Part shown: positions 20,164 through 53,550 of the stretch, one piece after another | Layout: each line of letters begins with the position of its first letter | How positions within the stretch are numbered: the first letter of the stretch is position 1 | Origin: a bacterium | GTDB taxonomy: Bacteria > Patescibacteriota > Minisyncoccia > Phycocordibacterales > UBA9973 | DNA: 64,000 bases | NCBI GenBank assembly: GCA_037143195.1 | Contig: JBAWZD010000001.1 | Span: 355,733 to 419,732 of the forward strand | Reading direction: 5' to 3' | The notes under the pieces: model-generated | The model's database searches: none | What the model was told of the DNA's origin: nothing | What the model saw: the letters and a program-made list of their open reading frames with translations, nothing else | Translations under genes and position numbers: made by a program

Positions 20164-20223
20164 TCCATCACGAGCGTTTTGACTTATTCGCATGATAGTG
20201 CAATATGGAACAAAATACTCTTT

Positions 20224-20568: not shown

Positions 20569-20573
20569 AGTTA

Positions 20574-21164
20574 CTAGTTATTAAACACCGTCATCATCTT
20601 CCCTCGCCCTTCGTGCGCGTACATGTCGAGTGATTCGCCAACACGCTTTGCGATTTTTTTCAATTCGGCAAGTTCGCTGTCTTTAAAATCTTTCATCAAA
20701 AAATCAATCACGGCCTGTTCGCCTTTTGGTTTTTTCATTTTGCCCCCAGGAGTTTCTGGCGAGACGCCAATACGAATACGCACGAATTCCTGACTCTTGA
20801 GTACTTTGATGATGTCGCCGAGACCGTTGTGCCCGCCACTCGAACGATCGAATGAAATCTTGATGCGACCGATAGGCAAATCGAGATCGTCATAAATCAC
20901 GACGAGATTTTCCAAATCTTTTTTGGCTTTGATGAGTGGCTTCACGCTCCCACCAGAATTATTCATAAAATTGTCTGGCGCAACAAATTGCATTTTAGTC
21001 GTGCCAATTTTGCCCGTAGCCCACAGCGCACGGGTGCGTTTGTCCGCGTACCAATCCGAAAAATCATTTTTCTTGGCAAGCATCTCCAAAATAATTCGTC
21101 CCGCATTGTGACGAGTCTGTACGTATTCCTCTCCTGGATTTCCAAGTCCTACAACTGTAAGCAT
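20574..21164 (-). CDS. pth: peptidyl-tRNA hydrolase
   Basis: MLTVVGLGNPG..YxxTRHNAG, and GHNG catalytic region. Confidence 0.95.
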   Translation of the reverse strand: MLTVVGLGNPGEEYVQTRHNAGRIILEMLAKKNDFSDWYADKRTRALWATGKIGTTKMQFVAPDNFMNNSGGSVKPLIKAKKDLENLVVIYDDLDLPIGRIKISFDRSSGGHNGLGDIIKVLKSQEFVRIRIGVSPETPGGKMKKPKGEQAVIDFLMKDFKDSELAELKKIAKRVGESLDMYAHEGRGKMMTVFNN

Positions 21165-21191
21165 TCAAACAGTATATCTCATTCGGAGCAC

Positions 21192-21335
21192 AACGGAAAC
21201 GGTGCAATTATGCAAAATGTGTGCTCCGAAAGCATCTTCGGAGCGCGACGGCGCGAGAATAAGGCGAAAATCCTTCAGGATTTTACGCCGGTGCTTTCGG
21301 AGGTCATATTTTGCATAATTGCACCGTTTCCGTTT
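21192..21335. repeat. long hairpin enclosing the same ~55-nt core as 14378-14518; copy B
   Basis: Arms aacggaaacggtgcaattatgcaaaat..ctccgaaagca pair with tgctttcggag..attttgcataattgcaccgtttccgtt. Core tcttCGGAGCGCGACGGCGCGAGaataAGGCGAAAATCCTTCAGGATTTTACGCCGg. The arm sequences are unrelated to copy A, but in both copies the arms are self-complementary. Confidence 0.8.
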
Positions 21336-21381
21336 GACAATATAAAGTACATTGTTGTCAATAGGGATTGTATACTACAAT

Positions 21382-21960
21382 ATGCCACATATGGATGAAA
21401 TTAAAAGCCCCCAGTCAAAATGGCATGGTGCCCGTGAATTCGGTAAGTTTATCTTCATGGTCGTCGCAATAGTAGTCGTGGTTCGTGTATTCATCGCCCA
21501 GCCGTTCGTCGTGTCTGGAACCTCAATGGTGCCTACATTTCAGGACAAAAACTACCTCATTGTCGATGAATTGACCTATGACTTCAAAAAGCCATCTCGT
21601 GGCGACGTCATCGTCTTCCATCCCCCAGTCGACATGAGTACCTACTACATCAAACGAGTCATCGGTCTTCCTGGTGATACCGTCACAATAAAAAACAGCG
21701 TCATCACTATCACAAATGTAAGTCATCAGGACGGACTCGTACTCACCGAAGACTACATCACCAAAGACACTCCCGACGACAATTTCTCTGTCACCGTTCC
21801 GGCCAATCAGTACTTCGTGATGGGAGACAATCGTCCCGCAAGTTTTGATTCACGCCGTTGGGGACTCCTTCCTGCAAAAAATATCACTGGCCGTGTCCTC
21901 TTCCGTCTCTTCCCCGTCAACGAAATCTCTATTTTCCCTGGCGAACATTCTAAATATTAA
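21382..21960 (+). CDS. lepB: signal peptidase I
   Basis: SGTSMVPTF (catalytic Ser box), KRVIGLPGD, GDNRPASFDSRRWG. Start placed at MPHMDEIK after the track's short N-terminal extension. Confidence 0.9.
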   Translation: MPHMDEIKSPQSKWHGAREFGKFIFMVVAIVVVVRVFIAQPFVVSGTSMVPTFQDKNYLIVDELTYDFKKPSRGDVIVFHPPVDMSTYYIKRVIGLPGDTVTIKNSVITITNVSHQDGLVLTEDYITKDTPDDNFSVTVPANQYFVMGDNRPASFDSRRWGLLPAKNITGRVLFRLFPVNEISIFPGEHSKY

Positions 21961-21976
21961 TTAATTATTCGCAGTA

Positions 21977-23299
21977 TTGTATATGCCTACATCAAAAAAA
22001 CCCGCAAAGAAAGCTGCTCCAAAGACAGGAGAACTCGCCGCACCAAAAGGAATGCGCGATCTCATTGGTGAAGAATATTATCTCTTTCAGGGATTCTTCG
22101 AAAAAGCTCAAGAGGTAGCAATGTATTACGGATTCAAACCCGTAGAGACACCAATGCTTGAACATGATTTCATTTTCAGCTCTGGAATCGGAGCTGGTAC
22201 TGACGTCGTCGACAAAGAAATGTACACGCTTCGCACAAAAGGTGGCGACATGCTCGCCCTTCGTCCAGAGCACACGGCGAGTCTCATGCGTGCATACATC
22301 GAACACGGTATGGCAAACCAGCCACAGCCATGTATGTTCTATCAATACGGTCCTTCATTCCGTCACGACAATCCGCAGAAAGGACGTTACCGCGAATTCT
22401 ACCAATTCGACATCGACGCACTTGGTTCTGAAAAAAGTATTCTTGATGCACTCGTCATCAAGACAATGCTCACCATCATCAATGAAAGTGGCGCACCAGC
22501 AACATCGATTGATCTCAACTCAATCGGTTGTAAAGATTGTCGCCCAGGATATGTTCGTGAACTTGTGAACTACTACAAGAAACATGTAAACAATCTTCCA
22601 GCAGTTGATCGCGAGCGTTTGAAAGCAAATCCACTTCGCATCCTTGATTCCAAAGAAGAAAAGACTCGCGAGATCAACGAAGGTGCTCCCGAAGCAATTT
22701 CATTCCTCTGTCCTGCATGTAAAAAGCACTTCAAAGAAGTCCTCGAATATCTTGAGGAAATGGAAGTGCCTTACAACATCAACAAGAATCTTGTTCGTGG
22801 TCTCTCCTACTACTCCCGCACAGTGTTCGAAGTCGTCGTTCCATCAGAAGACGGTGGCGCACCAATGGCAATCGCCGGTGGAGGTCGCTATGACTATCTC
22901 GGACGTCAGCTCGGAAGCAAAAAAGATATTCCAGCGATTGGTGTTGCGCTCGGCGTTGATCGTCTCATCTCGATGCCATGGTACAACAAGCACACTCCAC
23001 GCATCATCAAGAAGCCTCGCGTCTACTTCATCCAGCTCGGTATTGAAGCAAAGCTCAAGAGTCTCAACATCATTGAGATTCTCCGCAAAGCGCATGTCCC
23101 AATGGCACAGGCGCTCTCAAAAGATTCGCTCGGTGCACAGCTCGCAATGGCAGAAAAATCTGGTGCTCCATACACAATCATCTTCGGACAAAAAGAAGCC
23201 ATCGAACAGTCCGTCATTGTGCGCAATATGACTACGCGTTCTCAAGAAACAGTCAAACAAAAAAACTTGGCTGACTACATGAAAAATCTTAACAAGTAA
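21977..23299 (+). CDS. hisS: histidyl-tRNA synthetase
   Basis: Class II aaRS motifs. HisRS-specific GMRD, ALRPEHTAS, FYQFD, GGGRYDYL. C-terminal anticodon-binding domain. Confidence 0.93.
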   Translation: MYMPTSKKPAKKAAPKTGELAAPKGMRDLIGEEYYLFQGFFEKAQEVAMYYGFKPVETPMLEHDFIFSSGIGAGTDVVDKEMYTLRTKGGDMLALRPEHTASLMRAYIEHGMANQPQPCMFYQYGPSFRHDNPQKGRYREFYQFDIDALGSEKSILDALVIKTMLTIINESGAPATSIDLNSIGCKDCRPGYVRELVNYYKKHVNNLPAVDRERLKANPLRILDSKEEKTREINEGAPEAISFLCPACKKHFKEVLEYLEEMEVPYNINKNLVRGLSYYSRTVFEVVVPSEDGGAPMAIAGGGRYDYLGRQLGSKKDIPAIGVALGVDRLISMPWYNKHTPRIIKKPRVYFIQLGIEAKLKSLNIIEILRKAHVPMAQALSKDSLGAQLAMAEKSGAPYTIIFGQKEAIEQSVIVRNMTTRSQETVKQKNLADYMKNLNK

Positions 23300-23320
23300 T
23301 CACTCACCTGTTTCAAACTC

Positions 23321-23923
23321 ATGTTGACCATCGTCCAAAAAGAAAATCCTGTCTTGCGTGCAATCGCACAGGAAGTTCCGATTTCCGAAATTGAGAGCGC
23401 ACACATCAAGCGTGTCATTCGTGACATGAAAAAGATGCTCAAGACACAACCTGACGGTGTCGCTATTGCCGCACCACAGATCGGTGAATCGCTCCGCATC
23501 TTCGTCGTGTCTGGAAAAATCTTTGAAGAATCATGGCAGAAAGAACTCGTGCTTCCTGAAGGCACAGCAGTCCAGACGCCAGATCTCACATTCATCAATC
23601 CTCGAATTTTGAAACTTTCAAAGACAAAGAAATGGATGCACGAAGGATGTCTTTCGGTGCGACCACTCTGGGGTGAAGTTGAGCGTTCGACCAATGCAAC
23701 GGTCGAAGCGTATGATGAAACCGGCAAAAAATTTACCCGTGGAGCGGGCGGATTGCTCGCGCATATTTTCCAACACGAGACAGACCATCTTGATGGCGTG
23801 CTCTTCATCGACCGTGCACGAAATGTCGCCCCTGGAGAAGTTCCTCCTCCCGTGACTCCCGCAAAAAAGGCTCGTAAACCCAAAGCGCCAGTAAAAAAGT
23901 CGCCAACCAAAACGAAGAAATAA
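23321..23923 (+). CDS. def: peptide deformylase with a Lys-rich C-terminal tail
   Basis: GVAIAAPQIG, EGCLSV, HETDHLDG motifs. Confidence 0.95.
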   Translation: MLTIVQKENPVLRAIAQEVPISEIESAHIKRVIRDMKKMLKTQPDGVAIAAPQIGESLRIFVVSGKIFEESWQKELVLPEGTAVQTPDLTFINPRILKLSKTKKWMHEGCLSVRPLWGEVERSTNATVEAYDETGKKFTRGAGGLLAHIFQHETDHLDGVLFIDRARNVAPGEVPPPVTPAKKARKPKAPVKKSPTKTKK

Positions 23924-23924
23924 C

Positions 23925-24779
23925 ATGAATCCGCAAATCAAAATTGCATTCTGGGGCACGCCACAACTCACGACTCATTACCTCGATGCACTTGAGCAAG
24001 CAGGACTCAAACCTGCGCTCATTATTACAAACCCCGACCGCCCAAAAGGTCGTGGTCAGGAGATCGCACTCACTCCGGCAAAAGTCTGGGGTATCAAACA
24101 CAATGTGCGCGTCTTGCAACCAGAGCGACTTGATGAAGCTTTTTTTCAAGAATTTTTGGAATATAAAATAAACGTTTCGATTGTCGTCGCGTATGGATCA
24201 ATCCTTCCAGAACGCTTCATTGACGTACCTCAATTTGGCACGCTCAACGTCCACTACTCACTCTTGCCCCGCTACCGCGGGGCCTCACCCATCGAGGCCT
24301 CAATCCTCTCCGGAGACAAGGAAACCGGCGTTGCAATTCAAAAGATGGTTCGTCTGCTCGACAGCGGTCCACTCATTGCCGAGAAAATGGTGCCACTGGA
24401 TGAGCACCTGACCGCGCCAGAGCTTCGTGAGCACCTTTCTGTTGTCGGCGCACAACTCATGTTGGAAACGCTTCCCAAGTACCTCACGGGGCTCCTCACA
24501 CCCGCTCCACAAGACGAGTCCAAGGCAACATTCTGCACCAAAATCCAAAAGGAAGATGGCTTCCTTGATCTCACAGGTAATCCTGTCTACCTCTATCGCA
24601 AATACCGCGCATATTACGAATGGCCACGCACATTTTTCTTTTACGAGAGTAACAACAAAAAAGTTCGCCTGATCATTACCAGAGCGAACTTCGTTGATGG
24701 CGTATTCGTCGTCGAACACGTTTTGCCTGAAGGCAAGAAAGAAATGAGTTTCGACGATTTCAAACGCGGGTTTAAATAG
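23925..24779 (+). CDS. fmt: methionyl-tRNA formyltransferase
   Basis: IAFWGTPQ, NVHYSLLPRYRGASPI (formyltransferase SLLP motif). Follows def in the classical def-fmt arrangement. Confidence 0.95.
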   Translation: MNPQIKIAFWGTPQLTTHYLDALEQAGLKPALIITNPDRPKGRGQEIALTPAKVWGIKHNVRVLQPERLDEAFFQEFLEYKINVSIVVAYGSILPERFIDVPQFGTLNVHYSLLPRYRGASPIEASILSGDKETGVAIQKMVRLLDSGPLIAEKMVPLDEHLTAPELREHLSVVGAQLMLETLPKYLTGLLTPAPQDESKATFCTKIQKEDGFLDLTGNPVYLYRKYRAYYEWPRTFFFYESNNKKVRLIITRANFVDGVFVVEHVLPEGKKEMSFDDFKRGFK

Positions 24780-24802
24780 GGCCTAGATAAATCGCGCGAA
24801 AA

Positions 24803-25171
24803 TTATTTCTTCCACGAAAGTCCCTTCATCATAGATTTGATTTTGCGTGCACCGCGATGAAAGAGTGTGCGTCGTTTTGCATTACTCTGTGTGACTTCAC
24901 GCATGAGTTCTTCTTTGGCGAGATCTACCGCCGCAGTAATATCGCCCGCAACACCTGTCGCAAAAAATTCACGTTCGTGGAGTTTAAATTTCACTTCCAC
25001 ATGATATGAATCGTCGCGTGTACGTGCCGTCGCGCGCGAAACAGTGAGGAGTATTTCGTGACCAACATCGTCGGTCATAAAACGCTCAAACCCACGAAAA
25101 CGCTTCTCGATATAGTCACGAACCTTGTCCGAAATCGAAACCGTGTCCCCTGTTATTGTGTAAGTAATCAT
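24803..25171 (-). CDS. hpf: ribosome hibernation promoting factor / RaiA family
   Basis: 122 aa, MITYTITGDTVSISDKVRDYIEKRF..., YfiA/HPF-type beta-alpha-beta-beta-beta-alpha fold signature. Confidence 0.8.
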   Translation of the reverse strand: MITYTITGDTVSISDKVRDYIEKRFRGFERFMTDDVGHEILLTVSRATARTRDDSYHVEVKFKLHEREFFATGVAGDITAAVDLAKEELMREVTQSNAKRRTLFHRGARKIKSMMKGLSWKK

Positions 25172-25513: not shown

Positions 25514-25829
25514 TCCCCTGTAGCTCAGCGGTAGAGCAATCGACTGTCAGTAAGGCAGCTTCCTAGAGAAATCTAGGTCGAAAACGAGGTGAACTCGGTG
25601 AAGCCCACGAAAGCAATTTCTGGGGTAATACCGAGCCAAGCTCTGATATCAAATTCAGAGAAGGTGTAGAGACTATCCCCTTTGCGGGAGTACTCCGACA
25701 TCTGTCGGCGGAAGCGCCTCGGCCCTCACAGACCAGAAATGGTCAGAGGGTATGATATAGTCCACCCCTTTAAGTAATTTTAGGACAAGTGTAATCGATT
25801 GGTCGCAGGTTCGATCCCTGCCGGGGGAG
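25514..25829 (+). tRNA. tRNA-Asn(GUU) interrupted by a group I intron in the anticodon loop (exons 25514-25547 and 25792-25829)
   Basis: 5' exon tcccctg ta gctcagcggtagagc a atcga ctgt. 3' exon taa tcgat tggtc gcagg ttcgatc cctgc cggggga g. Spliced product is 72 nt with anticodon loop ctGTTaa, discriminator G, and acceptor tcccctg/cggggga. Confidence 0.8.
25548..25791 (+). ncRNA. group I self-splicing intron (~244 nt) inserted between tRNA-Asn positions 35 and 36
   Basis: 5' exon ends in U and the intron ends in G (omega-G). A candidate P1 forms between exon ctgt and intron ggcag near the intron 5' end. The conserved group I core elements are present: ttcagagaaggtgtagagactatcc (R/P7-like) and atgatatagtccac (S element GAUAUAGUCC, 25754-25763). 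Confidence 0.75.
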
Positions 25830-27533
25830 CAGAGTAGGACACACGTCCTCAAAAACCGCATTTCGTCCTGAAGTATCAAGTATATTTTTAGGTTCGAACT
25901 GCGGATTTTTTGTTTTTGCTTCAAGCAATCCTTTTTCGATCGTCTTATACAGAATTCCCTTTGTAATTATTACTTTTTTCTCGGTTAAAGTTAGGTTCGA
26001 ACCCAAACTAGAGAGTGCCTCCGTAATCTCTTCAAAATCGCCACTTTTGATAACTTCTTCCAATTCCGTGAGAATCTCGAGCTTATTGGTAACATCTCTC
26101 ATATCGAGCTTAAAGTCTTGTCCTACGCCCATTCTGGCGCGAACATTCGCCATTTCTCCCTTTATTTCTAACTCTTTTTCTCTAAAGCCCTCCTCGTCCG
26201 TAAAACCTCTTGTGTACGCATCAAGTAATCGTCCATGCTGTTCTTCGAGTCGCTTCATATCCTGATGCCAGCTGTTTTCGATCGTTTTGTCAGTCGTTTT
26301 CTGCTTATGTTCTAATATCTCTATGTTATCAATACACCACCTCGCAAGAGGTGGTGAGAGAGCAATTGTGCGGATATAATCATCTACAACCTGTTCACCA
26401 AGGACACTTTCGCTGAAGCTTTTCGCTGGACAATCAGGCACTTTCTTTTTTGTGCAGTGATAATAGATATAATTTAAAACTTTATTCTTGATACTACGTA
26501 AACCACTACCACATTTGGGACACGCACTTTTATTCGACACAGCAAACTTGTTTTTGCAATTACCACACATAATCTGCAGTTTCTTTTCAGCAGTAACTGA
26601 ACCACCGCAGTGTCCGCATTTTAAGAAATTCTTGTACGGAAATTCTTCTCTATGGGTGGATGATCGCGGATTACCTCTACGACGAATCAATTTGAGAATT
26701 TTGTAATGCTCTCGTTCTGTTATCATCCGTGGCACTAAGGGATTCACTTCATACCTGACAGTGTTCCCATCCGAATCTTTACCGAAGAAGAATCCTGCAT
26801 AGAATGGATCACTGAGCATCTTGTACGTCAGCGAAAGTTTCAATGGTTTACCTCCAAACTTCTTTCTCGCAACACTATGAAGCATAAAATCGTTCACAGC
26901 AACACGGTGCAATTCTCTGACTGAATATTTCTCTGTTAGAAACATTTGAAATAGTTTTTTGACGATTTCAAATCTTTCTGGATCAATCAACGTTTTTCGA
27001 AACCCCTTTTCTCCTCGATCATTCGCATATCCGATTTTTGCAATTCCGGGCGGATATCCCATCTGTCGCTTTTTCACAAGCCCGCGCTTAACGTTCTCGC
27101 CCTTGTTGTCGTTCTCCATCTTTGCCTGACTACAGAGCATCGTGAAGAAAAACTTGTCAGAGGGTGTATTTCGGAATATCTGTTGTTTGGTAATTATATA
27201 TTTTAATTTTTCCTCATCTAACAAATCAACCAGTCGCCCAGCATCTCCAGCATTTCTCGAAAGACGATCAGGGTGCCACGTGATAATTGCTTGCACGCTA
27301 CCTTTGTTAATATCTTTAACCATCTGCTCAAAGACAGGTCGTTGTCCTGATTTCTTTGCTGATTTTGCTTCGGTCAATTTTTCGCTTTCTTGTAATTCAA
27401 AACCATAGCTTATAGCAAGTTTATCTGTCTCAGCTTTTTGTGATTCTATCGACAATGCCTGACGTTCTTCTTGCTCGCTTGATTTGCGATTATATGAGCG
27501 TGCTTTAAGTCCTTTGAATTCACCTTTATCCAT
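25770..27533 (-). CDS. large serine recombinase (phage-integrase-type, resolvase/invertase catalytic domain plus recombinase and zinc-ribbon domains)
   Basis: N-terminus ARSYNRKSSEQEERQALSIESQ (catalytic Ser region), central recombinase domain, Cys cluster CGHCGGSV...CGNCKNKF...CPKCGSG, coiled-coil tail. The 3' end (…LPRQGSNLRPIDY) is encoded antisense to the tRNA-Asn T-arm and 3' exon. Confidence 0.85.
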   Translation of the reverse strand: MDKGEFKGLKARSYNRKSSEQEERQALSIESQKAETDKLAISYGFELQESEKLTEAKSAKKSGQRPVFEQMVKDINKGSVQAIITWHPDRLSRNAGDAGRLVDLLDEEKLKYIITKQQIFRNTPSDKFFFTMLCSQAKMENDNKGENVKRGLVKKRQMGYPPGIAKIGYANDRGEKGFRKTLIDPERFEIVKKLFQMFLTEKYSVRELHRVAVNDFMLHSVARKKFGGKPLKLSLTYKMLSDPFYAGFFFGKDSDGNTVRYEVNPLVPRMITEREHYKILKLIRRRGNPRSSTHREEFPYKNFLKCGHCGGSVTAEKKLQIMCGNCKNKFAVSNKSACPKCGSGLRSIKNKVLNYIYYHCTKKKVPDCPAKSFSESVLGEQVVDDYIRTIALSPPLARWCIDNIEILEHKQKTTDKTIENSWHQDMKRLEEQHGRLLDAYTRGFTDEEGFREKELEIKGEMANVRARMGVGQDFKLDMRDVTNKLEILTELEEVIKSGDFEEITEALSSLGSNLTLTEKKVIITKGILYKTIEKGLLEAKTKNPQFEPKNILDTSGRNAVFEDVCPTLLPRQGSNLRPIDYTCPKIT

Positions 27534-27591
27534 ATAGGTTACATAACAACACATACCAAGTAATGGCTTCGAAGTCCATACCCAGCGGTTA

Positions 27592-27759
27592 TTAGCGATT
27601 ATTTTTTATAATGCGCCTGCAGGCGTGTTTCTTTGCCAGCATTGCCATTCGTAGGAGTCGAGTCGCGAGCTCAACGGCTTCAGCATGCGACAACTGAACA
27701 CCATAATCCTGATCGATTATTTCGATAAGTCGGCTAAGTTGTTTCGCTGATAAGTCCAT
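27592..27759 (-). CDS. small helical protein immediately upstream of the recombinase (candidate Xis/RDF or regulator)
   Basis: MDLSAKQLSRLIEIIDQDYGVQLSHAEAVELATRLLRM.... A 14-bp inverted repeat (27761-27802) overlaps its start. Confidence 0.35.
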   Translation of the reverse strand: MDLSAKQLSRLIEIIDQDYGVQLSHAEAVELATRLLRMAMLAKKHACRRIIKNNR

Positions 27760-27896
27760 ACAAAATGGCCAACAGGACGGTGACTTCCTGCTGGCCATTT
27801 TGTATGACGTCACCGTATGGTCAACGCAAAACGCGCTACCACATTTCTATGGTGACGCGTTTTGATTCGATAATCTCCCTAGGTTTTAGAGGGTCT

Positions 27897-28655
27897 CTAA
27901 AACCTCTTATTTTTGAGTTTGTTGTACTCAGTGACAACCCGCTTAATTGTCGCAGTACTGACCTTAATCTTATCTTCATTACTTAAGATTTTTTGAATAA
28001 TCATTTCCTTTGTCTGATCCACGCACGTTGGATCAAGTTCTTTTCGGGATTTTCTAGACAGGGCGTAGATTTTTTCATCTCTTTCTTTGTTTTGAAGTGG
28101 ATTCATTTTTTCAGGTTTTTTCTGTGTTTGCTCCATGAGAGAATCCTGAATTCTTTCCCAGTTCTCCTTTATGAATTCTTGAACATCTTTGTAATTTGTC
28201 GCTTCAGGAAAAATAAAAAGTTTAACGAATGGTTGCTTCACCGCGACATAAAGATCATCTAGACATTGAAATTTAGAACCGTATTTGTACGCATCTGTAT
28301 CCAAGACAGCAATAGTGTTCTTTGTTTTTCGTTTGATTGCTCCATCTTCATGTTTTTTCATTTTTCTGGTTTCGGGATCACCGAAATAAAGATAGTCAAA
28401 TAAGAAATCTCTATCTAACAATGACACTCCGTACTTTTTTGCAAGATTTATTTGTTCAAGGAACAGATCTTCTGTCATATTTGCATCTAGTCCTTTTATC
28501 CAATGAGTTTTGAGTATCTCTTTCTCGAATCCAAATATTGGCATCTTAAATTTACGACGTATATTGGCTACATCTTCCCAAAAAACGTCACTGAAGGTTA
28601 TCTTATATAACTGATCCTCAAGCCGAGATACTGTCTCGGCGTCACCGCTATTCAT
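27897..28655 (-). CDS. hypothetical protein (island)
   Basis: 252 aa, AT-rich codon usage, no recognisable motif. Confidence 0.5.
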   Translation of the reverse strand: MNSGDAETVSRLEDQLYKITFSDVFWEDVANIRRKFKMPIFGFEKEILKTHWIKGLDANMTEDLFLEQINLAKKYGVSLLDRDFLFDYLYFGDPETRKMKKHEDGAIKRKTKNTIAVLDTDAYKYGSKFQCLDDLYVAVKQPFVKLFIFPEATNYKDVQEFIKENWERIQDSLMEQTQKKPEKMNPLQNKERDEKIYALSRKSRKELDPTCVDQTKEMIIQKILSNEDKIKVSTATIKRVVTEYNKLKNKRF

Positions 28656-28923
28656 ATACCCAAAGTGTACCAGAAAGTGCCGTTTATGCTATGATAATTT
28701 TGTACCGCAAGGTATTCGAACAATTTAATATGAAAGTAACCTAAACCATCGCTTCGGCGGTGGCATGGTGAAAAAATCCGACTAAGGAGCAAACAACCCA
28801 TCATATGGGGGCTTCCTTAGTCGGTCATACGTCGAAAGGCGTATGGATGTCGCAAGACATCACCCCTGTGATGGGCTTTTTGCTGTCCATTTAGGGGGTT
28901 TTATCAGACTTTAAAATAACATT

Positions 28924-29127
28924 ATGGAAATAGCTATAATCATTTTATTAGTGATCATTGTTTTTCAATTATCGGCAATGAATGGGAATTTAAGAATCAT
29001 CGATCAAACACTGGAGGGTATCAGAGAAATGTCTGAGATGAGTGCTGGCCAACGCTGGGAGCACGATTTAAAAATTGACGATCCTGAAGAATATAAACGC
29101 TACCAAAATAGGGATCGTTCTTATTAA
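28924..29127 (+). CDS. hypothetical small membrane-anchored protein (island)
   Basis: 67 aa, N-terminal TM helix MEIAIIILLVIIVFQLSA. Confidence 0.35.
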   Translation: MEIAIIILLVIIVFQLSAMNGNLRIIDQTLEGIREMSEMSAGQRWEHDLKIDDPEEYKRYQNRDRSY

Positions 29128-29158
29128 GTTAGATTGCCACAGAGATATCTAACTCAAT

Positions 29159-29488
29159 TTAATTTAGTTTGCTTTTCAAAAAAGCTATGCCATTTTGCTT
29201 GCCCTCAAGAGTTGTAGCGTACACATCATAATACACCTCTGTTGAAAGAACATCTTCTCCTTTTTTATTCCATTCTTCAACACGCGCATCAAGCCAAGTT
29301 TGTAAATCGTCCTCAGTAAAAGCTTTTTTAAAGTGATCAACGAAATATTCATATGAGGCGCAGATGTACACGCTAGAGTATTTGCTACCATGATCAGACA
29401 ATAAGCGCAGGATTGTCCAATATACATCCCTGTGAGTATCTTCTCTTAGTTTACTATTCTCGATTCTCATAATTTTATTATACCACAC
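29159..29488 (-). CDS. hypothetical protein, last gene of the R-M/defense operon
   Basis: 109 aa. Its start overlaps the stop of the DUF3800-like gene. Confidence 0.5.
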   Translation of the reverse strand: MWYNKIMRIENSKLREDTHRDVYWTILRLLSDHGSKYSSVYICASYEYFVDHFKKAFTEDDLQTWLDARVEEWNKKGEDVLSTEVYYDVYATTLEGKQNGIAFLKSKLN

Positions 29489-30290
29489 TGATTAGTCTTC
29501 TAAATTTTGCTTTTATTCTGTCGGTGCTTTCTTTTATTGAAGGTGATAATGTTCTTTTAGGGTAAACATTGAAACCTTTTCCTAAAATTGTATTAAGATC
29601 GGTATCATCTGATTTCCAAAAATTATCCTTTATGATGGGTAGAAAATTATACGCCATCTCCTTCATACTATACTGAATTGCACCTAATACTACGTCGTTA
29701 ATTTGATGAATCTGACTATATTCATTACTGATTTGAACGACAGGATAAATAATATAACGCAGATCAGAATAATCTATTCCATTAGCATAGGCAGAAAAAC
29801 AATGTCCGGTCATGTGGGAAGTAAACGCTTGCTCAAAGCAATCTGATATAACCATACCATTTTCTCTTATTGATTCGAGGTACTGATTAAATTTATGCAG
29901 ACAAACATTCATTCCATATTTTGTTGTCTGTAATTGGCGAGATTTATTTATTCTAAATTTAATAATCATATCCACGAAACTCATATCGTGATAGAAGTCA
30001 TGTGGTGCAAGATAAACAATAATTTTGCATTTTGACTTACTCACCATTTCTAGAATACGTTGTTTAAATTCTGCATGAATAGTAGCATCTAATATTCCTT
30101 CTCCATTCCAATTGTTATTTGTCCATTTTATTGGACGCTCATGTTTTATTCCATAATGACTTTTTAGTTTCAGTACCTTCTTACAAAGAGGGGCAAGTTC
30201 TTTTTCATCTACAATAATTCCACCATAAATGAAGAATTCGAATTTGTCGTCACTGGTTATATTGGACTCATCAGTAATAAGGAATTTCAT
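29478..30290 (-). CDS. DUF3800-like protein
   Basis: 270 aa. N-terminus MKFLITDESNITSDDKFEFFIYGGIIV matches the M..IDESG.. start characteristic of DUF3800. Sits 14 nt downstream of hsdR. Confidence 0.5.
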   Translation of the reverse strand: MKFLITDESNITSDDKFEFFIYGGIIVDEKELAPLCKKVLKLKSHYGIKHERPIKWTNNNWNGEGILDATIHAEFKQRILEMVSKSKCKIIVYLAPHDFYHDMSFVDMIIKFRINKSRQLQTTKYGMNVCLHKFNQYLESIRENGMVISDCFEQAFTSHMTGHCFSAYANGIDYSDLRYIIYPVVQISNEYSQIHQINDVVLGAIQYSMKEMAYNFLPIIKDNFWKSDDTDLNTILGKGFNVYPKRTLSPSIKESTDRIKAKFRRLISVV

Positions 30291-30304
30291 CTGTTAGTCA
30301 GTAT

Positions 30305-33271
30305 TTATTTATTCATCTTCTTGACCACATATTCGAACACTTTCTCTTGGACGAATTTCTTGAGTTCTGGACTCTGATCAAGTTTTTGATACAAGCTGAA
30401 GTGATTGTCGAGCACGCCAACAAGCTCGTCTTGAAAGAGCTGATCAAATTTCAATTTCGCAGAATCCTTGCTGTTATTTTCTACAGAACCTCTCAGCACT
30501 TCACTTGCAAGAAGTCGCTTACTCAAGTCATTGAGAATAACTCGATCACCATCAGTGAAATTCGTACCGTATCGTTCATTGATTTCTTTTATGATTTTTG
30601 ATAGCGCGTCTCGTTCATCTTCGGTTGAACCCTTACTATCTCCACTACCCATTGGATCGATAACTCCTTCAGTATTTTCAAGTTGAACATTCTTTTCTCC
30701 AGTCTTTTCAATTCTATATGTTGCCATATCTATCGCTTCAAGCACTTCATACGGAAGTGGATTTTCTCGTCTTGGTAATTTCTTAATCAGAAACTTCAGG
30801 AAGATATATAGCTTCTCAAGCTGAGGATCTTCAAATGTAACAATCTGCGAGATGAATGCGTATTTTTTGAGATAGTCGAATACAGTTGTTTTGAAACTTT
30901 CCATTTCTTCTTCAGTAAGATTTTCTTCTTGGATTCTTGAAACGACACCATCAATTATGTGATTGAGCTTATCCGGTGTTGCACCTGCGAAGTATTCATC
31001 TATAAACCCATTTACCTCGAAATCCGTGAAGAACTTGAATCCACGCACCTCACGCTCGAGATCGTGCAGTATATTCGGATTAGTAGCTTCTGAGAGCACT
31101 GTGGTGGTGTAATAGGGCTGAAAAGCGTCCTTAATCTCGTCTGTTTGATTCACAAAGTCGAGAACGAACGTATCGTCCTTTCCGTAAGTAGTTCGGTTCA
31201 ATCGTGAGAGTGTTTGAACTGCACCAACCCCTCCAAGCTTCTTATCGACATACATCACCGAAAGCAACGGCTGATCGAATCCTGTTTGATATTTTTCCGC
31301 TACGATCAAAAACTTATACTCGTCTTTTTTGAATTCTTCAGTAGTTTGAGTATCGGACACCTTGTTCATCTGCGCTTCAGTATATTCCAACTTCGTGTCG
31401 ACATCTTTTACGGTACCAGAAAAAGCCACTAATGCTTTATGGTGGTATCCTTTTTCCTTGAGATATTTATCAAACGCAATCTTATATCGAACAGCGTGGA
31501 GACGAGATTTTGTTACCACCATCGCCTTTGCCTTGCCACCGACAAGTGAAGCTATTTTTTCTTCAAAGTGCTCCACCATGATCGCTGTCTTTTTATCGAT
31601 AGCATGCTCATGGCGCTCCACGTATCCGATCATCAATCGCTGTGCTTTTTTCTTGTCGAATTCAGGATCGTCTTCAACTTTTTTCAGAAGCCCGAAGTAT
31701 GTTTCGTATGTCGTGTAATTCTTCAAAACATCAAGAATGAATTTCTCCTCAATAGCTTGTTTCATTGAATACAGAGAGAACGGTATATATTTTCCAGTGA
31801 GTGGGTCTTCAGCTCCAAAGAGTTCAAGTGTCTTTTGTTTTGGAGTTGCAGTGAACGCAAAGAAGCTCAAGTTTGGTGAAGCGACCTTTCGCGCTTTCAT
31901 GCGCTCAATGATTTGATCTTCCACTGTCTTGAATACTTTTTCTTCTTTCTCCGTTTCTTTTTCTGCTTCGTCCAAAGTAAGTACTTGTCGCAAATCGGCG
32001 GCAGATTCTCCGGATTGCGAAGAATGAGCTTCGTCAATGATGACTGCGAATTTTTTGCCCTCCACTTTTTCTATTGCATCAACAATCACAGGGAATTTCT
32101 GCAGAGTCGTCGTAATAATTCTTACTCCTGCTTCCAATGATTCCTTGAGTTCTTTTCCTCCATTCTCTATGTGTTTTACAAGCCCTGTCACCTGACTGAA
32201 GCTCTTTACCGTGTCTGAAAGCTGTTTATCGAGCACACGGCGGTCGGTAACGACAATAACGCCATCAAACACGTTCTTGCTTGCAATATCGTGTAATTCG
32301 GCAAGACGATGCGCTACCCATGCAATGGTATTACTTTTTCCTGATCCAGCGCTGTGTTGAATAAGATAGTTTTTCCCTGAGCCATTCTCCTGAGCATCTA
32401 ACACGATTTTTCTCACTGTCTCCAATTGATGATAACGAGGGAAGATTATTTTTTCTTCCTTACTTTTCTTTCCGTTTTTGTCTTCTTTTTCTTCGGTGAT
32501 ATCTTGTATGAAATTCCCGAGTAAATCAAACACACTGTCTTTTGACCAGACATCTTCCCAGAGATAGTGGGTTTTGTATTTTCCTTTTGGTGCATCAGGA
32601 TTGCCAGACGAACCATTGTTGCCTTTGTTGAACGGCAAGAAATATGTCGTAAGACCAGTGAGTCGAGTCGTCATATATGCCTGTTCAGTGTCTACTGCAA
32701 AGTGAGTCAGGCATCGCTTGAAGGATAGGAGTTTCTCTTTTTGATCACGATCCGTTCTGTATTGAGAAATAGCATTGATAACATTCTGTCCTGTAAATTG
32801 ATTTTTGAGTTCCACAGTAAAAACAGGGAGTCCGTTCACGAAGATAACCATGTCTAGAGAGTTCTCGTTCTTTGCGCTGTATTTGACCTGACGCATAACA
32901 CTCAATATATTTCCAGCGTAATCAGCGAGTGTTTCCGGATTTTTGTCATTTTCTGGCTTGAAGTGCGCAAGATGAAAACGCACCCCCCGATCGGTAACCC
33001 CATCACGCAGAACACTCAACAAGCCACGAGAAAGAAGCTCCTCATCAATTCTAGCCAAGAATTTACTCTGTGCTTCTCCTCCGTACTGCTCAACAATCTT
33101 CTGCCATGCTTCATTCTGAGTATTTTGAATAAACTCCAAAACCAGCTCTGTATCCATACAGAGAGTTTTATCGTAGGAAGAATTTAATCTCGAACGATAT
33201 TTGTGGAGCTCAGCAAGTTCCTTCTCGATGAATTCTTCAAATCCTTTTTCTTTTGTGTTTGTTTTTATCAT
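30305..33271 (-). CDS. hsdR: Type I restriction enzyme R subunit
   Basis: 988 aa. N-terminal PD-(D/E)xK nuclease (DMVIFVNGLPVFTVELK). SF2 helicase motifs: motif I IQHSAGSGKS, DEAH box FAVIIDEAHSSQ. C-terminal helical domain. Confidence 0.93.
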   Translation of the reverse strand: MIKTNTKEKGFEEFIEKELAELHKYRSRLNSSYDKTLCMDTELVLEFIQNTQNEAWQKIVEQYGGEAQSKFLARIDEELLSRGLLSVLRDGVTDRGVRFHLAHFKPENDKNPETLADYAGNILSVMRQVKYSAKNENSLDMVIFVNGLPVFTVELKNQFTGQNVINAISQYRTDRDQKEKLLSFKRCLTHFAVDTEQAYMTTRLTGLTTYFLPFNKGNNGSSGNPDAPKGKYKTHYLWEDVWSKDSVFDLLGNFIQDITEEKEDKNGKKSKEEKIIFPRYHQLETVRKIVLDAQENGSGKNYLIQHSAGSGKSNTIAWVAHRLAELHDIASKNVFDGVIVVTDRRVLDKQLSDTVKSFSQVTGLVKHIENGGKELKESLEAGVRIITTTLQKFPVIVDAIEKVEGKKFAVIIDEAHSSQSGESAADLRQVLTLDEAEKETEKEEKVFKTVEDQIIERMKARKVASPNLSFFAFTATPKQKTLELFGAEDPLTGKYIPFSLYSMKQAIEEKFILDVLKNYTTYETYFGLLKKVEDDPEFDKKKAQRLMIGYVERHEHAIDKKTAIMVEHFEEKIASLVGGKAKAMVVTKSRLHAVRYKIAFDKYLKEKGYHHKALVAFSGTVKDVDTKLEYTEAQMNKVSDTQTTEEFKKDEYKFLIVAEKYQTGFDQPLLSVMYVDKKLGGVGAVQTLSRLNRTTYGKDDTFVLDFVNQTDEIKDAFQPYYTTTVLSEATNPNILHDLEREVRGFKFFTDFEVNGFIDEYFAGATPDKLNHIIDGVVSRIQEENLTEEEMESFKTTVFDYLKKYAFISQIVTFEDPQLEKLYIFLKFLIKKLPRRENPLPYEVLEAIDMATYRIEKTGEKNVQLENTEGVIDPMGSGDSKGSTEDERDALSKIIKEINERYGTNFTDGDRVILNDLSKRLLASEVLRGSVENNSKDSAKLKFDQLFQDELVGVLDNHFSLYQKLDQSPELKKFVQEKVFEYVVKKMNK

Positions 33272-33275
33272 AAAT

Positions 33276-35150
33276 TTATTCTTTCAATTTAGCATGCACC
33301 GACAACACAAAATTATAGAAGGTTGTATATTTATCTTGTATGATTTGCTTGGTGTTTGTTTTTTTAACGACATCAGACAATACTTTGTTTGTAATCAAAG
33401 ATTTTAATTCTTTTAGATCGTCATTCGGGCTTATTTTTCTTAGTGATTTTAGTTTATCTTTTACTTCATCTAAAACAGCTTTCGTTGAATCAATTTGTAT
33501 TATTACAGAAAAAAGTTCGTTTACTGATTCAATAATAATTTCAGATGGTAGTAAATCTTCTATTGTAAAGTAAGCTTTACTTTGAGCTGAAAAATCATTC
33601 AATTCAAAGATATTATTTTTCAAAGAAGAGTTATCCTTAATCATGTTATTTTTTATACTCTTACCTTTTTGATCTGAGTCAAGAATAAAAAAACCTTTAA
33701 CTAGTTTATTATCGAAGAATTTTGCATATGTAGGCATTTTGTCAGCACTCTCAGAAGATATAGAACCTATATCTAAAGGTTTTATGTCAGATTTAAATTT
33801 TGATGTAAAAACATCAAACAAATCCTTATCGGTTCTACCTTCAAAAACTAACATATATGGTTTTATGTGTTCGTACACTGATGTTCCGAGTGCTTCATAT
33901 AATACTTCTTCTTGATATGGATTTTCAGGATCAATAGAATACGCACTTGTAACAGAACCTTTCGATACACTTCCACATTTCTCAACTCTTACATGTCGAT
34001 TTAAACTTTTTCGATCAACCATATAGATTGAATGCGTTGAAACAAAAACTAAATTGTTTTGCGCGATATTTAGTATCTCATCTCTAAGATATCTTACTCC
34101 GCTTGGGTGCAAGTGAACTTCGGGTTCGTCCAAGAGAATAACTTGGTTTTTTAAAATTGATTTTTTGTTTTCAACAGAAAGGTTAAGTAATATTGATACG
34201 AGTTGTCGAAATCCATCACTACGTTGAGACATTGCATATTTAGGTGTTGGATCATCCTTATCTTCTACGTAAACCGAACATGATAAATCTTGCTCGATTT
34301 GTATTCTAATCGAGATATTGTGTTCCGACCAAATCAAATTTATATGCTCAGTGATTGCTCTGGAGAGATCTTCCTGTAACTCCATTCTATTTTCTGCACT
34401 TTGTGATGCAAGAGAAACTGCGTAAGGGATATCATCTCTTTCAGCTATTTTAAAGATATTTCGAAGTGGAATTGACTTTGATTGATCTGTTGCAAATTCA
34501 TTCAGATTTACAGGTTTATTTATTAGATACTTGTCGTCATTAGGAGCCCAAAAAATTATTTTTGGAATACCTAAATCAAAAATTGTAGATTTTTCTGATA
34601 AAATCTTCTCTAAAATTTCCTTGTTTAAGATTCTTGCACCCGCACCAACAAGTGTGACGATACTTTCTTCTGTAACTGGTTCTTCACCCTGATATATTTC
34701 TTTGATTAACTTAATAGCGTTTTGTCCATCAATGAAATAGAGCCCGAGAGTTTTTATGTCATCAATTTCTATAAAAAATTGATCTATTCGCTTGTTCTCG
34801 AAATCAAAAACAACCACGCTTTCTATATTTTTAATCTTTATTTCTTTTGCCAAATCAAGAGGGATACCATTTTTACTCAAGTGGTCAACATAAAATTGCC
34901 AATTTTGAATTCCTAAGTTTAAACGAACTGATACTGATTCTTTTTTCTTCTGTGCCGATTTAAGACAATCAGTATTGTAGTTAATTGTTTCTCCTTTTGA
35001 TATAAGATTTATCGCTTTAAGTATATTACTTTTACCCGTCTCGTTAACACCCAAGAGTATATAGCAACTCTTATTGGCAATCGAATCAGTAGTCAAAAAA
35101 ATCTCTTTAATACTTCGGTAGTTATTTATTTTTATACTGTTTATTTTCAT
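33276..35150 (-). CDS. OLD-family ATP-dependent endonuclease (ABC-type ATPase fused to a Toprim/DUF4435-like nuclease; PARIS/Gabija-like), embedded between hsdS and hsdR
   Basis: MKINSIKINNYRSIKE... Walker A LLGVNETGKSNILKAI, signature-like SDGFRQLVSILL, Walker B/H-loop VILLDEPEVHLHP, VFVSTHS. C-terminal Toprim-like motifs MLVFEGRTDKDLF and GFFILDSDQKG. Confidence 0.75.
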   Translation of the reverse strand: MKINSIKINNYRSIKEIFLTTDSIANKSCYILLGVNETGKSNILKAINLISKGETINYNTDCLKSAQKKKESVSVRLNLGIQNWQFYVDHLSKNGIPLDLAKEIKIKNIESVVVFDFENKRIDQFFIEIDDIKTLGLYFIDGQNAIKLIKEIYQGEEPVTEESIVTLVGAGARILNKEILEKILSEKSTIFDLGIPKIIFWAPNDDKYLINKPVNLNEFATDQSKSIPLRNIFKIAERDDIPYAVSLASQSAENRMELQEDLSRAITEHINLIWSEHNISIRIQIEQDLSCSVYVEDKDDPTPKYAMSQRSDGFRQLVSILLNLSVENKKSILKNQVILLDEPEVHLHPSGVRYLRDEILNIAQNNLVFVSTHSIYMVDRKSLNRHVRVEKCGSVSKGSVTSAYSIDPENPYQEEVLYEALGTSVYEHIKPYMLVFEGRTDKDLFDVFTSKFKSDIKPLDIGSISSESADKMPTYAKFFDNKLVKGFFILDSDQKGKSIKNNMIKDNSSLKNNIFELNDFSAQSKAYFTIEDLLPSEIIIESVNELFSVIIQIDSTKAVLDEVKDKLKSLRKISPNDDLKELKSLITNKVLSDVVKKTNTKQIIQDKYTTFYNFVLSVHAKLKE

Positions 35151-36391
35151 ATTTTTACTTTTCCTGTTACGACATTCGATATTAACGACGACTTAAACTC
35201 TTTTAAAATTTCAATTGATTGTTCTGTCTTGCGGATAGCAGTATCAAAAAGCTTTGTTTTTTCGTTTAGTTTATTTACGATTTCTTTTTGTTTTTCTAAA
35301 TTAGGAAGTGAAAATTCATAGTTTCTAACGAATGAAGTAGTAACTCGTTTTTGTCCTGCTGTCCCGCGCATTTCAACTTCGCCTGATTTTCTGAATTTAT
35401 CAGAAAAAATTAGATAGTATAGATAATCAGCCAGTATCGAATCTTTCGGACGCATAACCATGAATTCGGTTGTGCCAAAACCAAACCCATTCTTTAATCC
35501 TTTCATTACTCCGGCTTTTCCGTTTTCGTAGCATGGAGTAATCTTGGCTAAAACAACATCTCCATTTCGAAAATAGGTAAACCCATCTTTTACCTCTTTG
35601 TATTTTTTTTCTTGTAGTTCAAGTTTTCCGTTCTCAGATATAGCTTCCATTGGTACAAACGAAACAGTATCTTCTAAGTCAGTGTCTGAAACAACTTTTT
35701 TTGTGGGATTTACTTGTACATGATTTTTAATTTTTACAAAATCACCTTTGATATCCATAATCATATGATTAACCAAAGCGGTGCGCCTTTCTTTTAGCAA
35801 TTCAATTTGTATTTCTTTTTTTTCTATAATTTGATCGATAAACGATGTTTTTTCATCAAGATAATTTGCAATTTTAGTTTGTTCTTTTGATTCAGGAACC
35901 GTAATTAAGATTCGTTTCATTTCGCTCTCACGAGTAGTCCAGAGATCGTCAACAATGCCTCGCCCCCAGCGATAAAACTCTTCAGAGAATAGATTACTTC
36001 TAAACAAATAATGAAAATACTTTGAGTCAAAAGTCGGGTTTCTTTTTCGGAGAACGTTGTAAACAAGAGAAACTCCTCCCTCATATTCTGACATTCCAAC
36101 AGCACCTTTTCTATCTGATCGCCCATTGATAGCTATATCACCAATCTTTACATGTTTTCGCAAGCTACCCTCGGCAACCTTGGCAGCATTTTCTATTTGC
36201 TTCTTAATACCACCATAGGTGACTGACAGAGGTTCATAATTTTCTTCAGTTACCTTATCATGGGGGAAATCAAATACTGATACAACTTTTTGCGATTCCC
36301 AACCTTTAGGAATTTTACCCAACCACTCAACACCCGAATCTTTGTATTCAGGATATTTATCGTATTTTTTTGTGAGTTTTAGTGTTTGCAT
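35147..36391 (-). CDS. hsdS: Type I restriction-modification specificity subunit (two target-recognition domains)
   Basis: 414 aa, duplicated TRD architecture with conserved central and C-terminal coiled-coil spacers. The 4-nt ATGA overlap with the downstream OLD gene indicates translational coupling. Confidence 0.9.
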   Translation of the reverse strand: MQTLKLTKKYDKYPEYKDSGVEWLGKIPKGWESQKVVSVFDFPHDKVTEENYEPLSVTYGGIKKQIENAAKVAEGSLRKHVKIGDIAINGRSDRKGAVGMSEYEGGVSLVYNVLRKRNPTFDSKYFHYLFRSNLFSEEFYRWGRGIVDDLWTTRESEMKRILITVPESKEQTKIANYLDEKTSFIDQIIEKKEIQIELLKERRTALVNHMIMDIKGDFVKIKNHVQVNPTKKVVSDTDLEDTVSFVPMEAISENGKLELQEKKYKEVKDGFTYFRNGDVVLAKITPCYENGKAGVMKGLKNGFGFGTTEFMVMRPKDSILADYLYYLIFSDKFRKSGEVEMRGTAGQKRVTTSFVRNYEFSLPNLEKQKEIVNKLNEKTKLFDTAIRKTEQSIEILKEFKSSLISNVVTGKVKI

Positions 36392-36392
36392 A

Positions 36393-36635
36393 TTAATTAA
36401 TTTTTAACAACCAAAGAACAATTCCAGAGATTAATGCAATCGCAACACCAATTAATATCTGCCCCATAACTGATTTAGGTAGTAATGATTGAGCTGTTTT
36501 AAAAATTGATCTTATTATTTTTGTTCTCGTTCCTTCATTTTTAATTGCATTATTAAAACCAATAAATTCACAGTCCTCAATTTTTGTGTCAGAAGCTTCT
36601 TTTGTTATATGAATACCAATAGTTTTATTTTCCAT
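36393..36635 (-). CDS. small protein with a C-terminal TM helix, between hsdM and hsdS
   Basis: About 80 aa from MENKTIGIHITKEASDTKIEDCEF... to ...ILIGVAIALISGIVLWLLKIN. Its ATG overlaps the hsdM stop by a few nt. Confidence 0.45.
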   Translation of the reverse strand: MENKTIGIHITKEASDTKIEDCEFIGFNNAIKNEGTRTKIIRSIFKTAQSLLPKSVMGQILIGVAIALISGIVLWLLKIN

Positions 36636-36639
36636 ATAT

Positions 36640-53547: not shown

Positions 53548-53550
53548 TTC

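Follow-up and report, generated by a model that had tools for sequence, protein, structure and literature searches.

An OLD-family ATPase-Toprim gene between hsdS and hsdR on a Paceibacterota defence island as a candidate portable back-up module

The window analysed here, a stretch of 64,000 nucleotides (nt) of contig JBAWZD010000001.1 from a bacterium of the Paceibacterota in the Candidate Phyla Radiation (CPR), contains a type I restriction-modification (R-M) operon with an additional gene between hsdS and hsdR. This gene encodes a protein of the OLD family, in which an ABC ATPase is followed by a predicted Toprim nuclease. Because close relatives of the gene share its slot in type I and type III R-M operons or stand alone, it is proposed to be a portable back-up defence module and not a new kind of system. 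The protein likely functions as an autonomous, ATP-regulated Toprim DNA nuclease that would form a second layer of defence behind the co-transcribed restriction enzyme. The usual picture of stand-alone OLD nucleases is one of isolated genes whose triggers are obscure. For the conserved subfamily described here, which matched 509 clusters at E≤1e-30 in a library of 50%-identity representatives, about half of the informative cases lie within or next to an operon of type I or type III. We hypothesize that the OLD protein may be triggered when restriction fails or is inhibited; the close solitary relatives are natural controls for the embedded ones.

The OLD gene and its junctions with hsdS and hsdR

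The genes flanking the OLD gene constitute a complete type I R-M system (Table 1; all coordinates are positions within the window). On the minus strand, the junction of hsdS with the OLD gene reads GTAAAAATATGAAAATAAAC (also AAAATATGAAAATA), the TGA stop codon of hsdS overlapping the ATG of the OLD gene by 4 nt (ATGA), and the junction with hsdR reads GAATAAATTTATGATA, with 4 nt (ATTT) between the OLD stop codon and the ATG of hsdR. These sequences bear out the placement given in the initial annotation, which had put the gene between hsdS and hsdR with the same overlap and gap. The choice of the start codon is supported by the N-terminus MKINSIKINNYRSI, which agrees with the family consensus. 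Since 410 homologues were retrieved in the database search, with E-values down to 1e-287, in addition to the 509 clusters mentioned above, the open reading frame (ORF) is not a chance ORF.

Family assignment and predicted structure

Profile searches (Pfam, PADLOC and NCBIfam) and structural comparisons confirmed that the protein is an OLD-family ABC ATPase joined to a Toprim domain with predicted nuclease activity. In Pfam, AAA_15 matched over the full length of the model (5.3e-17) and AAA_21 matched at 9.6e-14, the OLD Toprim model stayed below its threshold, and DUF4435 had no match at E≤0.01. The RloB, AAA_13/PrrC-type and PrrC/RloC-type families were not among the Pfam matches, nor was an AAA_13/PrrC-type profile among the PADLOC families listed. 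The top PADLOC model was Old (3.5e-26, residues 249-569), followed at lower ranks by AriA (8.8e-20, residues 1-379, the ATPase half only), GajA models (about 1e-16) and a fused AriAB model (5.3e-13, residues 328-602); AbiLi matched only the ATPase half, and HEC-04 was absent among the 25 PADLOC families listed for the protein. P2 Old was the sole match in the phage database. A search of the PDB with the single sequence (phmmer) yielded nothing significant, its top rows, lactate dehydrogenase and L23 at E of about 0.1, being noise, and a metagenome scan with the single protein gave no relative, whereas the repeat with alignment A1 did. A family profile was built from 37 members of 40-71% identity. 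Among solved structures its best match was GajA (2e-11), the family sequence FEGKTDKD aligning with IEGPSEK (E437 corresponding to E379 of GajA) and DSD with TDND. In hhalign the same profile matched phage P2 Old with 98.5% probability, pairing E437 and D441 with E398 and E402 of P2 Old as well as D491 and D493 with D453 and D455.

The AlphaFold2 (AF2) model of the full-length protein reached a pLDDT (predicted local distance difference test) score of 88.5. Its top Foldseek matches in the PDB were GajA (8sm3, 2.8e-15) and OLD of Thermus scotoductus (Ts OLD; 6p74, 2.3e-14), aligned over 640-700 columns that include both halves. Residues 425-624 modelled alone gave a pLDDT of 92.2, and ranks 1-5 of their Foldseek search were C-terminal regions of Xanthomonas and Burkholderia OLD proteins (6njx, 6njv, 6nk8, 6njw) with a probability of 0.96-1.00 and a template modelling (TM) score of 0.37-0.46; small Toprim proteins and RNase M5 followed, with Ts OLD at rank 17. 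The classes of OLD proteins are set by genomic context: class 1 are single genes, class 2 occur with GajB, class 3 in retrons and class 4 in PARIS (PMC10568477; PMC11464382). Because the five leading matches are class 2 C-terminal regions, the C-terminal half is predicted to be an OLD-type Toprim domain with a helical domain, in a layout that appears to resemble class 2 more than Ts OLD.

The family identity proposed in the initial annotation thus stands on Pfam, the PADLOC Old model, hhalign to P2 Old and Foldseek of the C-terminal 200 residues. Its further claim, a scaffold unlike PrrC/RloC and resembling that of PARIS, stands in its first part; the label PARIS-like is weak, as DUF4435 is unmatched and the AriA models cover only the generic ATPase half. 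The PARIS models raise the question of a different function, namely a fused sensor whose ATPase half would bind a phage DNA-mimic anti-restriction protein directly and independently of R-M, freeing the Toprim half to act, possibly against tRNA. Such a sensor would be useful given the linkage to Ocr-sensitive systems, it is compatible with the solitary relatives described below, and both the AriA and the fused AriAB model match the protein. We nevertheless consider it improbable, since PADLOC Old is the better model by six orders of magnitude, the AriA match reflects generic AAA_15 features only, the C-terminal fold resembles OLD C-terminal regions and the DUF4435 domain was not detected. A genome-maintenance ATPase of the SMC, RecF or RecN type without a nuclease role is effectively refuted: the profiles point to AAA_15 and OLD, SMC_N falling short of its 40-bit cut-off with 22.7 bits, a long coiled coil is absent from the protein, the acidic residues of its conserved Toprim domain are invariant, and the gene lies on a mobile island within an R-M operon.

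Conserved residues of the two halves

All motifs quoted in the initial annotation are present: LLGVNETGKS at residue 32, ILLDEPEVHLHP at 338, THS at 372, EGRTD at 437 and ILDSD at 489. One label had to be corrected. The Walker B stretch had been taken to contain the H-loop as well; its HLHP is the D-loop region, and the H-loop histidine is H373 of THS. The Walker B and D-loop region aligns in hhalign to ‘fidepelylhps’ of P2 Old. The degree of conservation of each motif among the 37 sequences is given in Table 1, GxNExGKS, DEPE, HxH and THS being the invariant motifs of the ATPase half. As to the remaining candidate catalytic positions, T529-x-E531 and K583 appear to mirror T506, E508 and K562 of Bp OLD in form and spacing, K583 following E531 by 52 residues and the equivalent spacing in Bp OLD being 54 (residues of Bp OLD from PMC7049728).

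Two members of alignment A1, P0058 and P0068, carry tryptophan at the otherwise invariant positions G34, G313, G438, G486 and G496. This suggests that their source organisms read UGA as glycine (genetic code 25) and that the sequences were translated with UGA as tryptophan.

Genomic context of the relatives

At least 168 loci were fetched, and the genes neighbouring the OLD homologues were labelled with iteratively built hidden Markov models that were verified against Pfam. The context census comprised full-length OLD relatives whose identity was 38% or more and whose flanks were readable, counted as lineages. The type I order hsdS-OLD-hsdR was found in four lineages, that of the window and L084 (71% identity), L085 (64%) and L086 (47%), and in a further one (L172) the OLD gene directly precedes a type I operon, in the order OLD-hsdM-UvrD-hsdS-hsdR. 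Five lineages of 39-44% identity (L107, L092, L094, L097 and L105/L101/L007) show the type III order mod-OLD-res, in which the flanking genes, mod with N6_N4_Mtase and res with ResIII, overlap the OLD gene or are separated from it by gaps of at most 11 nt; in L092 the stop codon of mod overlaps the start of the OLD gene, and about 7 nt lie between the OLD gene and res. The remaining 12 lineages, of 38-48% identity, are solitary, without an adjacent R-M gene. Examples are Marinifilum (48%) and Aquimarina (45%), the latter adjoining an AbiC-like gene. In Aliarcobacter butzleri and a JGI (Joint Genome Institute) genome the solitary gene is surrounded by housekeeping genes, and the solitary relatives of 42-48% identity lie among housekeeping genes or beside transposases or recombinases. 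In a neighbor-joining tree embedded and solitary forms were interleaved. The recurrent R-M slots, together with the solitary relatives and their interleaving in the tree, indicate that the subfamily is a portable cassette which has repeatedly lodged next to the gene for the restriction subunit in ATP-dependent R-M systems and does not need them. Among distant relatives of 26-33% identity the order hsdS-OLD-hsdR recurs (Bacteroidales; L030, L035, L049 and L051), and other distant relatives, mostly ATPase-only forms of about 480 residues, take the middle position in hsdM-X-hsdS.

The shared slot calls for a comparison with PrrC. A strict PrrC-like guard would be a nuclease held latent by the HsdMSR complex or the R subunit; an anti-restriction protein (Ocr, ArdA or a Stp-like peptide) that disables restriction would release it and thereby cause abortive infection. 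In EcoprrI, prrC is located between hsdS and hsdR as well. The OLD gene in the window is translationally coupled on both sides, the slot directly upstream of the R or res gene recurs in the four type I and five type III lineages, and the logic of a guardian, established in the case of PrrC and PARIS (PMC12707154), is also a proposal made for ABC ATPase systems that are embedded (10.1101/2024.01.29.577857). PrrC itself, however, is almost exclusively embedded (10.1101/2024.01.29.577857), whereas 12 OLD lineages have no adjacent R-M gene and are mixed with the embedded ones in the tree. As relatives of 42-48% identity are solitary among housekeeping genes, an obligate, PrrC-like dependence on HsdMSR is unlikely. 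The subfamily moreover sits in operons of type I as well as type III, and the M/S subunits of the one have an architecture unrelated to that of the Mod subunit of the other; docking to a specific surface of the methylase is therefore unlikely too. A guard role against anti-restriction in a looser sense, such as the anti-restriction-sensing nuclease suggested in the initial annotation, is plausible by analogy, and the strict form is judged unlikely.

The position directly upstream of, and coupled to, a translocase-nuclease gene in type I and type III operons would also suit an accessory nuclease that processes or degrades DNA after translocation and cleavage by HsdR or Res and is integral to restriction, and a 5'-3' exonuclease activity is known from some OLD enzymes (PMC10568477). 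This explanation appears very improbable to us, given that canonical enzymes of types I and III work without a partner of this kind, that close OLD relatives are solitary, and that HsdR of the window carries its own PD-(D/E)xK-type nuclease motif (D140, E154, K156) in addition to helicase motifs (GSGKS at 310, DEAH at 413). By the same nuclease motif, a replacement of a missing HsdR nuclease by the OLD protein was ruled out. The autonomous second-layer nuclease is retained as the preferred reading.

Some further arrangements were observed at the fetched loci. In L172 the UvrD-like helicase gene (6644..8299) between hsdM and hsdS, downstream of the OLD homologue, resembles a Gabija-like pair split by hsdM. 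In Methanococcoides alaskense (L006, 1698..3491) a GmrSD-type gene is located between hsdS and hsdR. In L173 an OLD homologue is directly followed by a DUF3800 protein and a reverse transcriptase. A link between OLD and DUF3800 was considered and dropped, the DUF3800 protein encoded after hsdR in the window and that of L173 being without pairwise similarity.

Proposed function

Known triggers of OLD proteins include the inhibition of RecBCD in the case of P2 Old and the anti-restriction protein Ocr in the case of PARIS and Gabija. The defence nucleases P2 Old, OLD of Vibrio cholerae (Vc OLD), GajA and HEC-04 depend on ATPase as well as Toprim residues (PMC7049728; PMC12392090; 10.1101/2024.01.29.577857), the lysine of Walker A and the acidic residues of Toprim both being required in vivo in P2 Old (PMC7049728) and HEC-04 (10.1101/2024.01.29.577857). 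The P2 Old residues aligned with E437, D441, D491 and D493 were found by mutation to be needed for killing (PMC7049728). Ts, Bp and Vc OLD are described as nicking DNA and as having exonuclease activity (PMC10568477; PMC12392090). By analogy with these enzymes, the window protein may be assumed to have a defence role, a DNA substrate and an infection-dependent activation.

In the mechanism that we propose, the N-terminal ABC ATPase would serve as a nucleotide-dependent switch or sensor and would probably dimerise. The Toprim nuclease would cleave nucleic acid with two metal ions, E437, D491 and D493 being the putative ligands of metal A and D441, probably together with T529 and E531, those of metal B, while the C-terminal helical region probably supplies K583 as the catalytic lysine. 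The OLD gene would be co-transcribed and translationally coupled with the type I genes and move with them on the mobile island. The protein is most likely inactive in uninfected cells and would be licensed during infections that restriction fails to stop; the active enzyme would nick or degrade DNA, halting phage replication and possibly killing the cell.

Several points weigh against this reading. OLD-like_TOPRIM (PF20469) matched residues 434-493 with 18.6 bits, below its gathering score of 23.2 bits; because the family is recorded for most OLD homologues of 40-48% identity, the low score is read as a limit of the model's sensitivity and not as absence of the domain. The Foldseek E-values of the C-terminal model are only 2e-3 to 2e-2, with TM scores of about 0.45, and the candidate assignment of T529, E531 and K583 relies on spacing and conservation. 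Moreover, about 45% of the informative relatives are found in or at R-M operons, the embedded ones adjoining the R or res gene; this share exceeds what hitch-hiking alone easily explains, and there may be a functional tie to restriction. Toprim effectors such as AriB can act on tRNA instead of DNA. Finally, Cran1, an OLD-family class, has a non-defence role (PMC12796447).

A bolder idea, which we put forward only tentatively and think more probably wrong than right, is that the subfamily acts as a sentinel dedicated to restriction enzymes that depend on ATP. Its members would then be analogous in function to PrrC and PARIS but made of a single chain, encoded directly upstream of hsdR or res and firing when enzymes of this class are blocked by phage DNA mimics or stalled on DNA, and the subfamily would represent a fifth, R-M-linked context class that is common in CPR bacteria.

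Operon and mobile island

The OLD gene belongs to an array of eight genes which probably form one operon (Table 1). The operon structure is deduced from gene spacing, because promoter-like sites were not enriched over shuffled sequence (41 versus 49) in the promoter and terminator scan. A promoter-like site is present at 39592..39565, with a strong terminator-like hairpin upstream of it at 40249..40221, both as consensus matches only. The 80-residue ORF between hsdM and hsdS is without a family match and is identical in L001 and L002; relatives have AntA (L085), KilA-N (L086) or the UvrD helicase (L172) at the hsdM-hsdS junction.

Table 1. Features of the OLD gene, its operon and the mobile island in the window
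Feature	Position	Strand	Description
OLD-family nuclease gene	33276..35150	(-)	ABC ATPase, Toprim and C-terminal helical region (nuclease activity predicted); 624 aa, ORF, ATG start, intact
ABC ATPase region	33891..35150	(-)	residues 1 to ~420; insert ~80-300 between Walker A and signature/Walker B
Walker A, G34-x-N36-E37-x-G39-K40-S41	35028..35051	(-)	N36, E37, G39, K40 invariant in 37 sequences
ABC signature-like, Q309-R310-S311-D312-G313	34212..34226	(-)	R310, S311 invariant
Walker B and D-loop region, ILLDEPEVHLHP (D341, E342, H348)	34104..34139	(-)	D341, E342, P343, E344, H348, P349 invariant
H-loop, T372-H373-S374	34029..34037	(-)	H373, S374 invariant
C-terminal region, residues 425-624	33279..33878	(-)	predicted Toprim fold and helical domain (AF2, Foldseek)
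Toprim glutamate motif, E437-G-R-T-D441-K-D443	33822..33842	(-)	E437, D441, D443 invariant
Toprim DxD, D491-S-D493	33672..33680	(-)	both Asp invariant; align with P2 Old D453/D455 and GajA TDND
T529-I-E531-D532	33555..33566	(-)	candidate remaining metal-B ligands; E531, D532 invariant, T529 in 34/37
K583	33402..33404	(-)	C-terminal helical region; candidate counterpart of Bp OLD K562; Lys in 36/37
hsdS	35147..36391	(-)	414 aa; Pfam Methylase_S 4.6e-12
hsdR	30305..33271	(-)	988 aa; HSDR_N, SWI2_SNF2/ResIII, T1R_D3
hsdM	36640..38394	(-)	584 aa; Pfam N6_Mtase 1.6e-60, HsdM_N 1.8e-23
Fic gene	38409..39545	(-)	first of array; PADLOC SoFic 2e-116
80-aa ORF	36393..36635		between hsdM and hsdS; hydrophobic C-terminal segment GQILIGVAIALISGIVLWLL; GC 0.27
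DUF3800 protein (270 aa) and overlapping 109-aa ORF	29159..30290		after hsdR; Pfam 4.9e-5, PADLOC candidate PDC-M04A 4.5e-9
109-aa ORF	29159..29488	(-)	last of array
Eight-gene array	29159..39545	(-)	Fic(SoFic)-hsdM-80aa ORF-hsdS-OLD-hsdR-DUF3800-109aa ORF; gaps ≤14 nt or overlaps
14.2-kb mobile unit	25792..39949		operon and serine recombinase gene (25770..27554); 97.5% identity to L001 5205..19355

The array is part of a 14.2-kb integrative defence island. This follows from a near-identical copy in L001, a contig from another sample whose flanks differ from those of the window on both sides of the unit, and from the tRNA-Asn at the recombinase end. A complete tRNA-Asn(gtt) adjoins this end in L001; the window retains no more than the 3' half of the tRNA-Asn, into which the recombinase ORF extends. 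At its far end the island starts from a degenerate version of the 3' end of the tRNA, possibly an att repeat. The tiny CPR genome thus stacks SoFic, a type I R-M system, the OLD gene and a DUF3800 candidate on a mobile island of 14 kb, which bears on the defence of the CRISPR-poor CPR bacteria.

Base composition varies along the island. GC contents are low in the OLD gene (0.306), hsdS (0.345), the 80-residue ORF (0.272) and the DUF3800 gene (0.316), with 0.15-0.26 at third codon positions, and higher in hsdM (0.402), hsdR (0.407) and the Fic gene (0.419). Nucleotide identity to L001 is 99.9% for the OLD gene and hsdS, 97.2% for hsdR, where the differences are clustered at 31000-32000 and 32750-33250, and 84.7% for the Fic gene, the neighbours of which are 97-100% identical. 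The divergence of the Fic gene suggests allele replacement by recombination, and the mosaic GC content and patchy divergence would fit an exchange of cassettes.

Just outside the island, in low-GC DNA, a 717-residue protein without a Pfam match (41416..43569) consists of repeats of about 95 residues (W..N....LPR....DW..F..LP..WQ..W), with internal 234-nt matches at 70% identity, and is followed by a 287-residue protein of unknown family (40265..41128). The host backbone (1..25000 and 49000..64000) has a GC content of about 0.47 and is of Paceibacterota/CPR type. It encodes a GyrA (14522..16996) that is 91% identical to a Candidatus Pacebacteria protein, a short IF-2 (505 residues, 5093..6610), a protein similar to type IV secretion system (T4SS) pilin (10472..12499) and a cluster of four tRNAs (6990..7454).

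Comparison with known systems

By the context-based scheme the OLD protein defaults to class 1, and its C-terminal region is class 2-like. With class 1 it shares the lack of a UvrD-type helicase, reverse transcriptase or split (AriB) partner, and the metal-A E...DxD residues as well as the putative metal-B acidic residue at E+4 align with those of P2 Old. Many members of the subfamily are single genes as in class 1, yet the window copy and nine further lineages lie inside or at R-M operons. A review describes class 1 genes as lying away from defence genes (PMC10568477), a description that this subfamily contradicts. Identity to P2 Old is only about 22% (residues 249-445), the C-terminal region, with its helical domain, resembles class 2 more than Ts OLD, and the basic residue seven positions after the metal-B glutamate (K550 in P2 Old, R487 in Ts OLD) is not conserved, its place apparently being taken by K583, 52 residues downstream.

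Class 2 and GajA provide the best profile match among solved structures and the best Foldseek matches, and the layout of Toprim and C-terminal helical domain is common to both, with a T-x-E motif and a distal lysine that appear to follow the pattern of Bp OLD. The spacing from DxD to T-x-E is 36 residues in the window protein versus 49, so that the class 2 Toprim insert is reduced. As in Gabija, a gene with a helicase domain lies directly downstream; it is HsdR, a superfamily 2 enzyme, and not a GajB of the UvrD/PcrA/Rep type, and Pfam detected no UvrD domain within the island.

With PrrC and RloC the protein shares an ABC-type NTPase in its N-terminal half and a presumed back-up role. With PrrC, the embedding of which in a type I locus is known (PMC12707154), it has the slot between hsdS and hsdR in common, a likeness of position only. 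Its effector is a Toprim domain and not an anticodon nuclease, and its subfamily is often solitary and also found in type III operons. PARIS has the same combination of an AAA_15/21 ABC ATPase with a Toprim effector and a genetic tie to Ocr-sensitive defences. The window protein differs in being one polypeptide with an OLD-type Toprim domain instead of DUF4435, and its similarity to PARIS, in profiles and in structure, is weaker than that to Old and GajA. It is thus not a member of PrrC/RloC, PARIS or Gabija.

The closest parallel in organization is found in modules with an AAA_15/21 ATPase and a Toprim domain nested in a modification-based defence operon, such as RloA/RloB and AbiL in type I hsd loci, HEC-01 and HEC-04 in Hma, and OLD-ABC plus TOPRIM in BREX (10.1101/2024.01.29.577857; PMC12839542; PMC12065111; PMC11464382). 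Guilt-by-embedding identified such modules in Hma, BREX, DISARM and type I R-M and led to the validation of HEC-04, a fused ATPase-Toprim protein in which defence depends on the Walker A and Toprim residues (10.1101/2024.01.29.577857); RloA/RloB modules, in which RloB is the Toprim protein, are nested in type I R-M (PMC12065111), and the modules embedded in BREX are described as back-up effectors (PMC12839542). The window protein differs from these in being a fused OLD-type protein with Old as its best PADLOC model. The principle of embedding and the enzyme family were both known already, and the novelty implied by the initial annotation is lowered by these publications (10.1101/2024.01.29.577857; PMC12839542; PMC12065111). 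For mod-OLD-res embedding in type III operons no description was found in the searchable, incomplete literature. While the embedding of ABC ATPase-Toprim modules in type I R-M and BREX is thus established, their embedding in type III operons and the slot shared by the two types of R-M operon are the fresh details that the OLD subfamily contributes.

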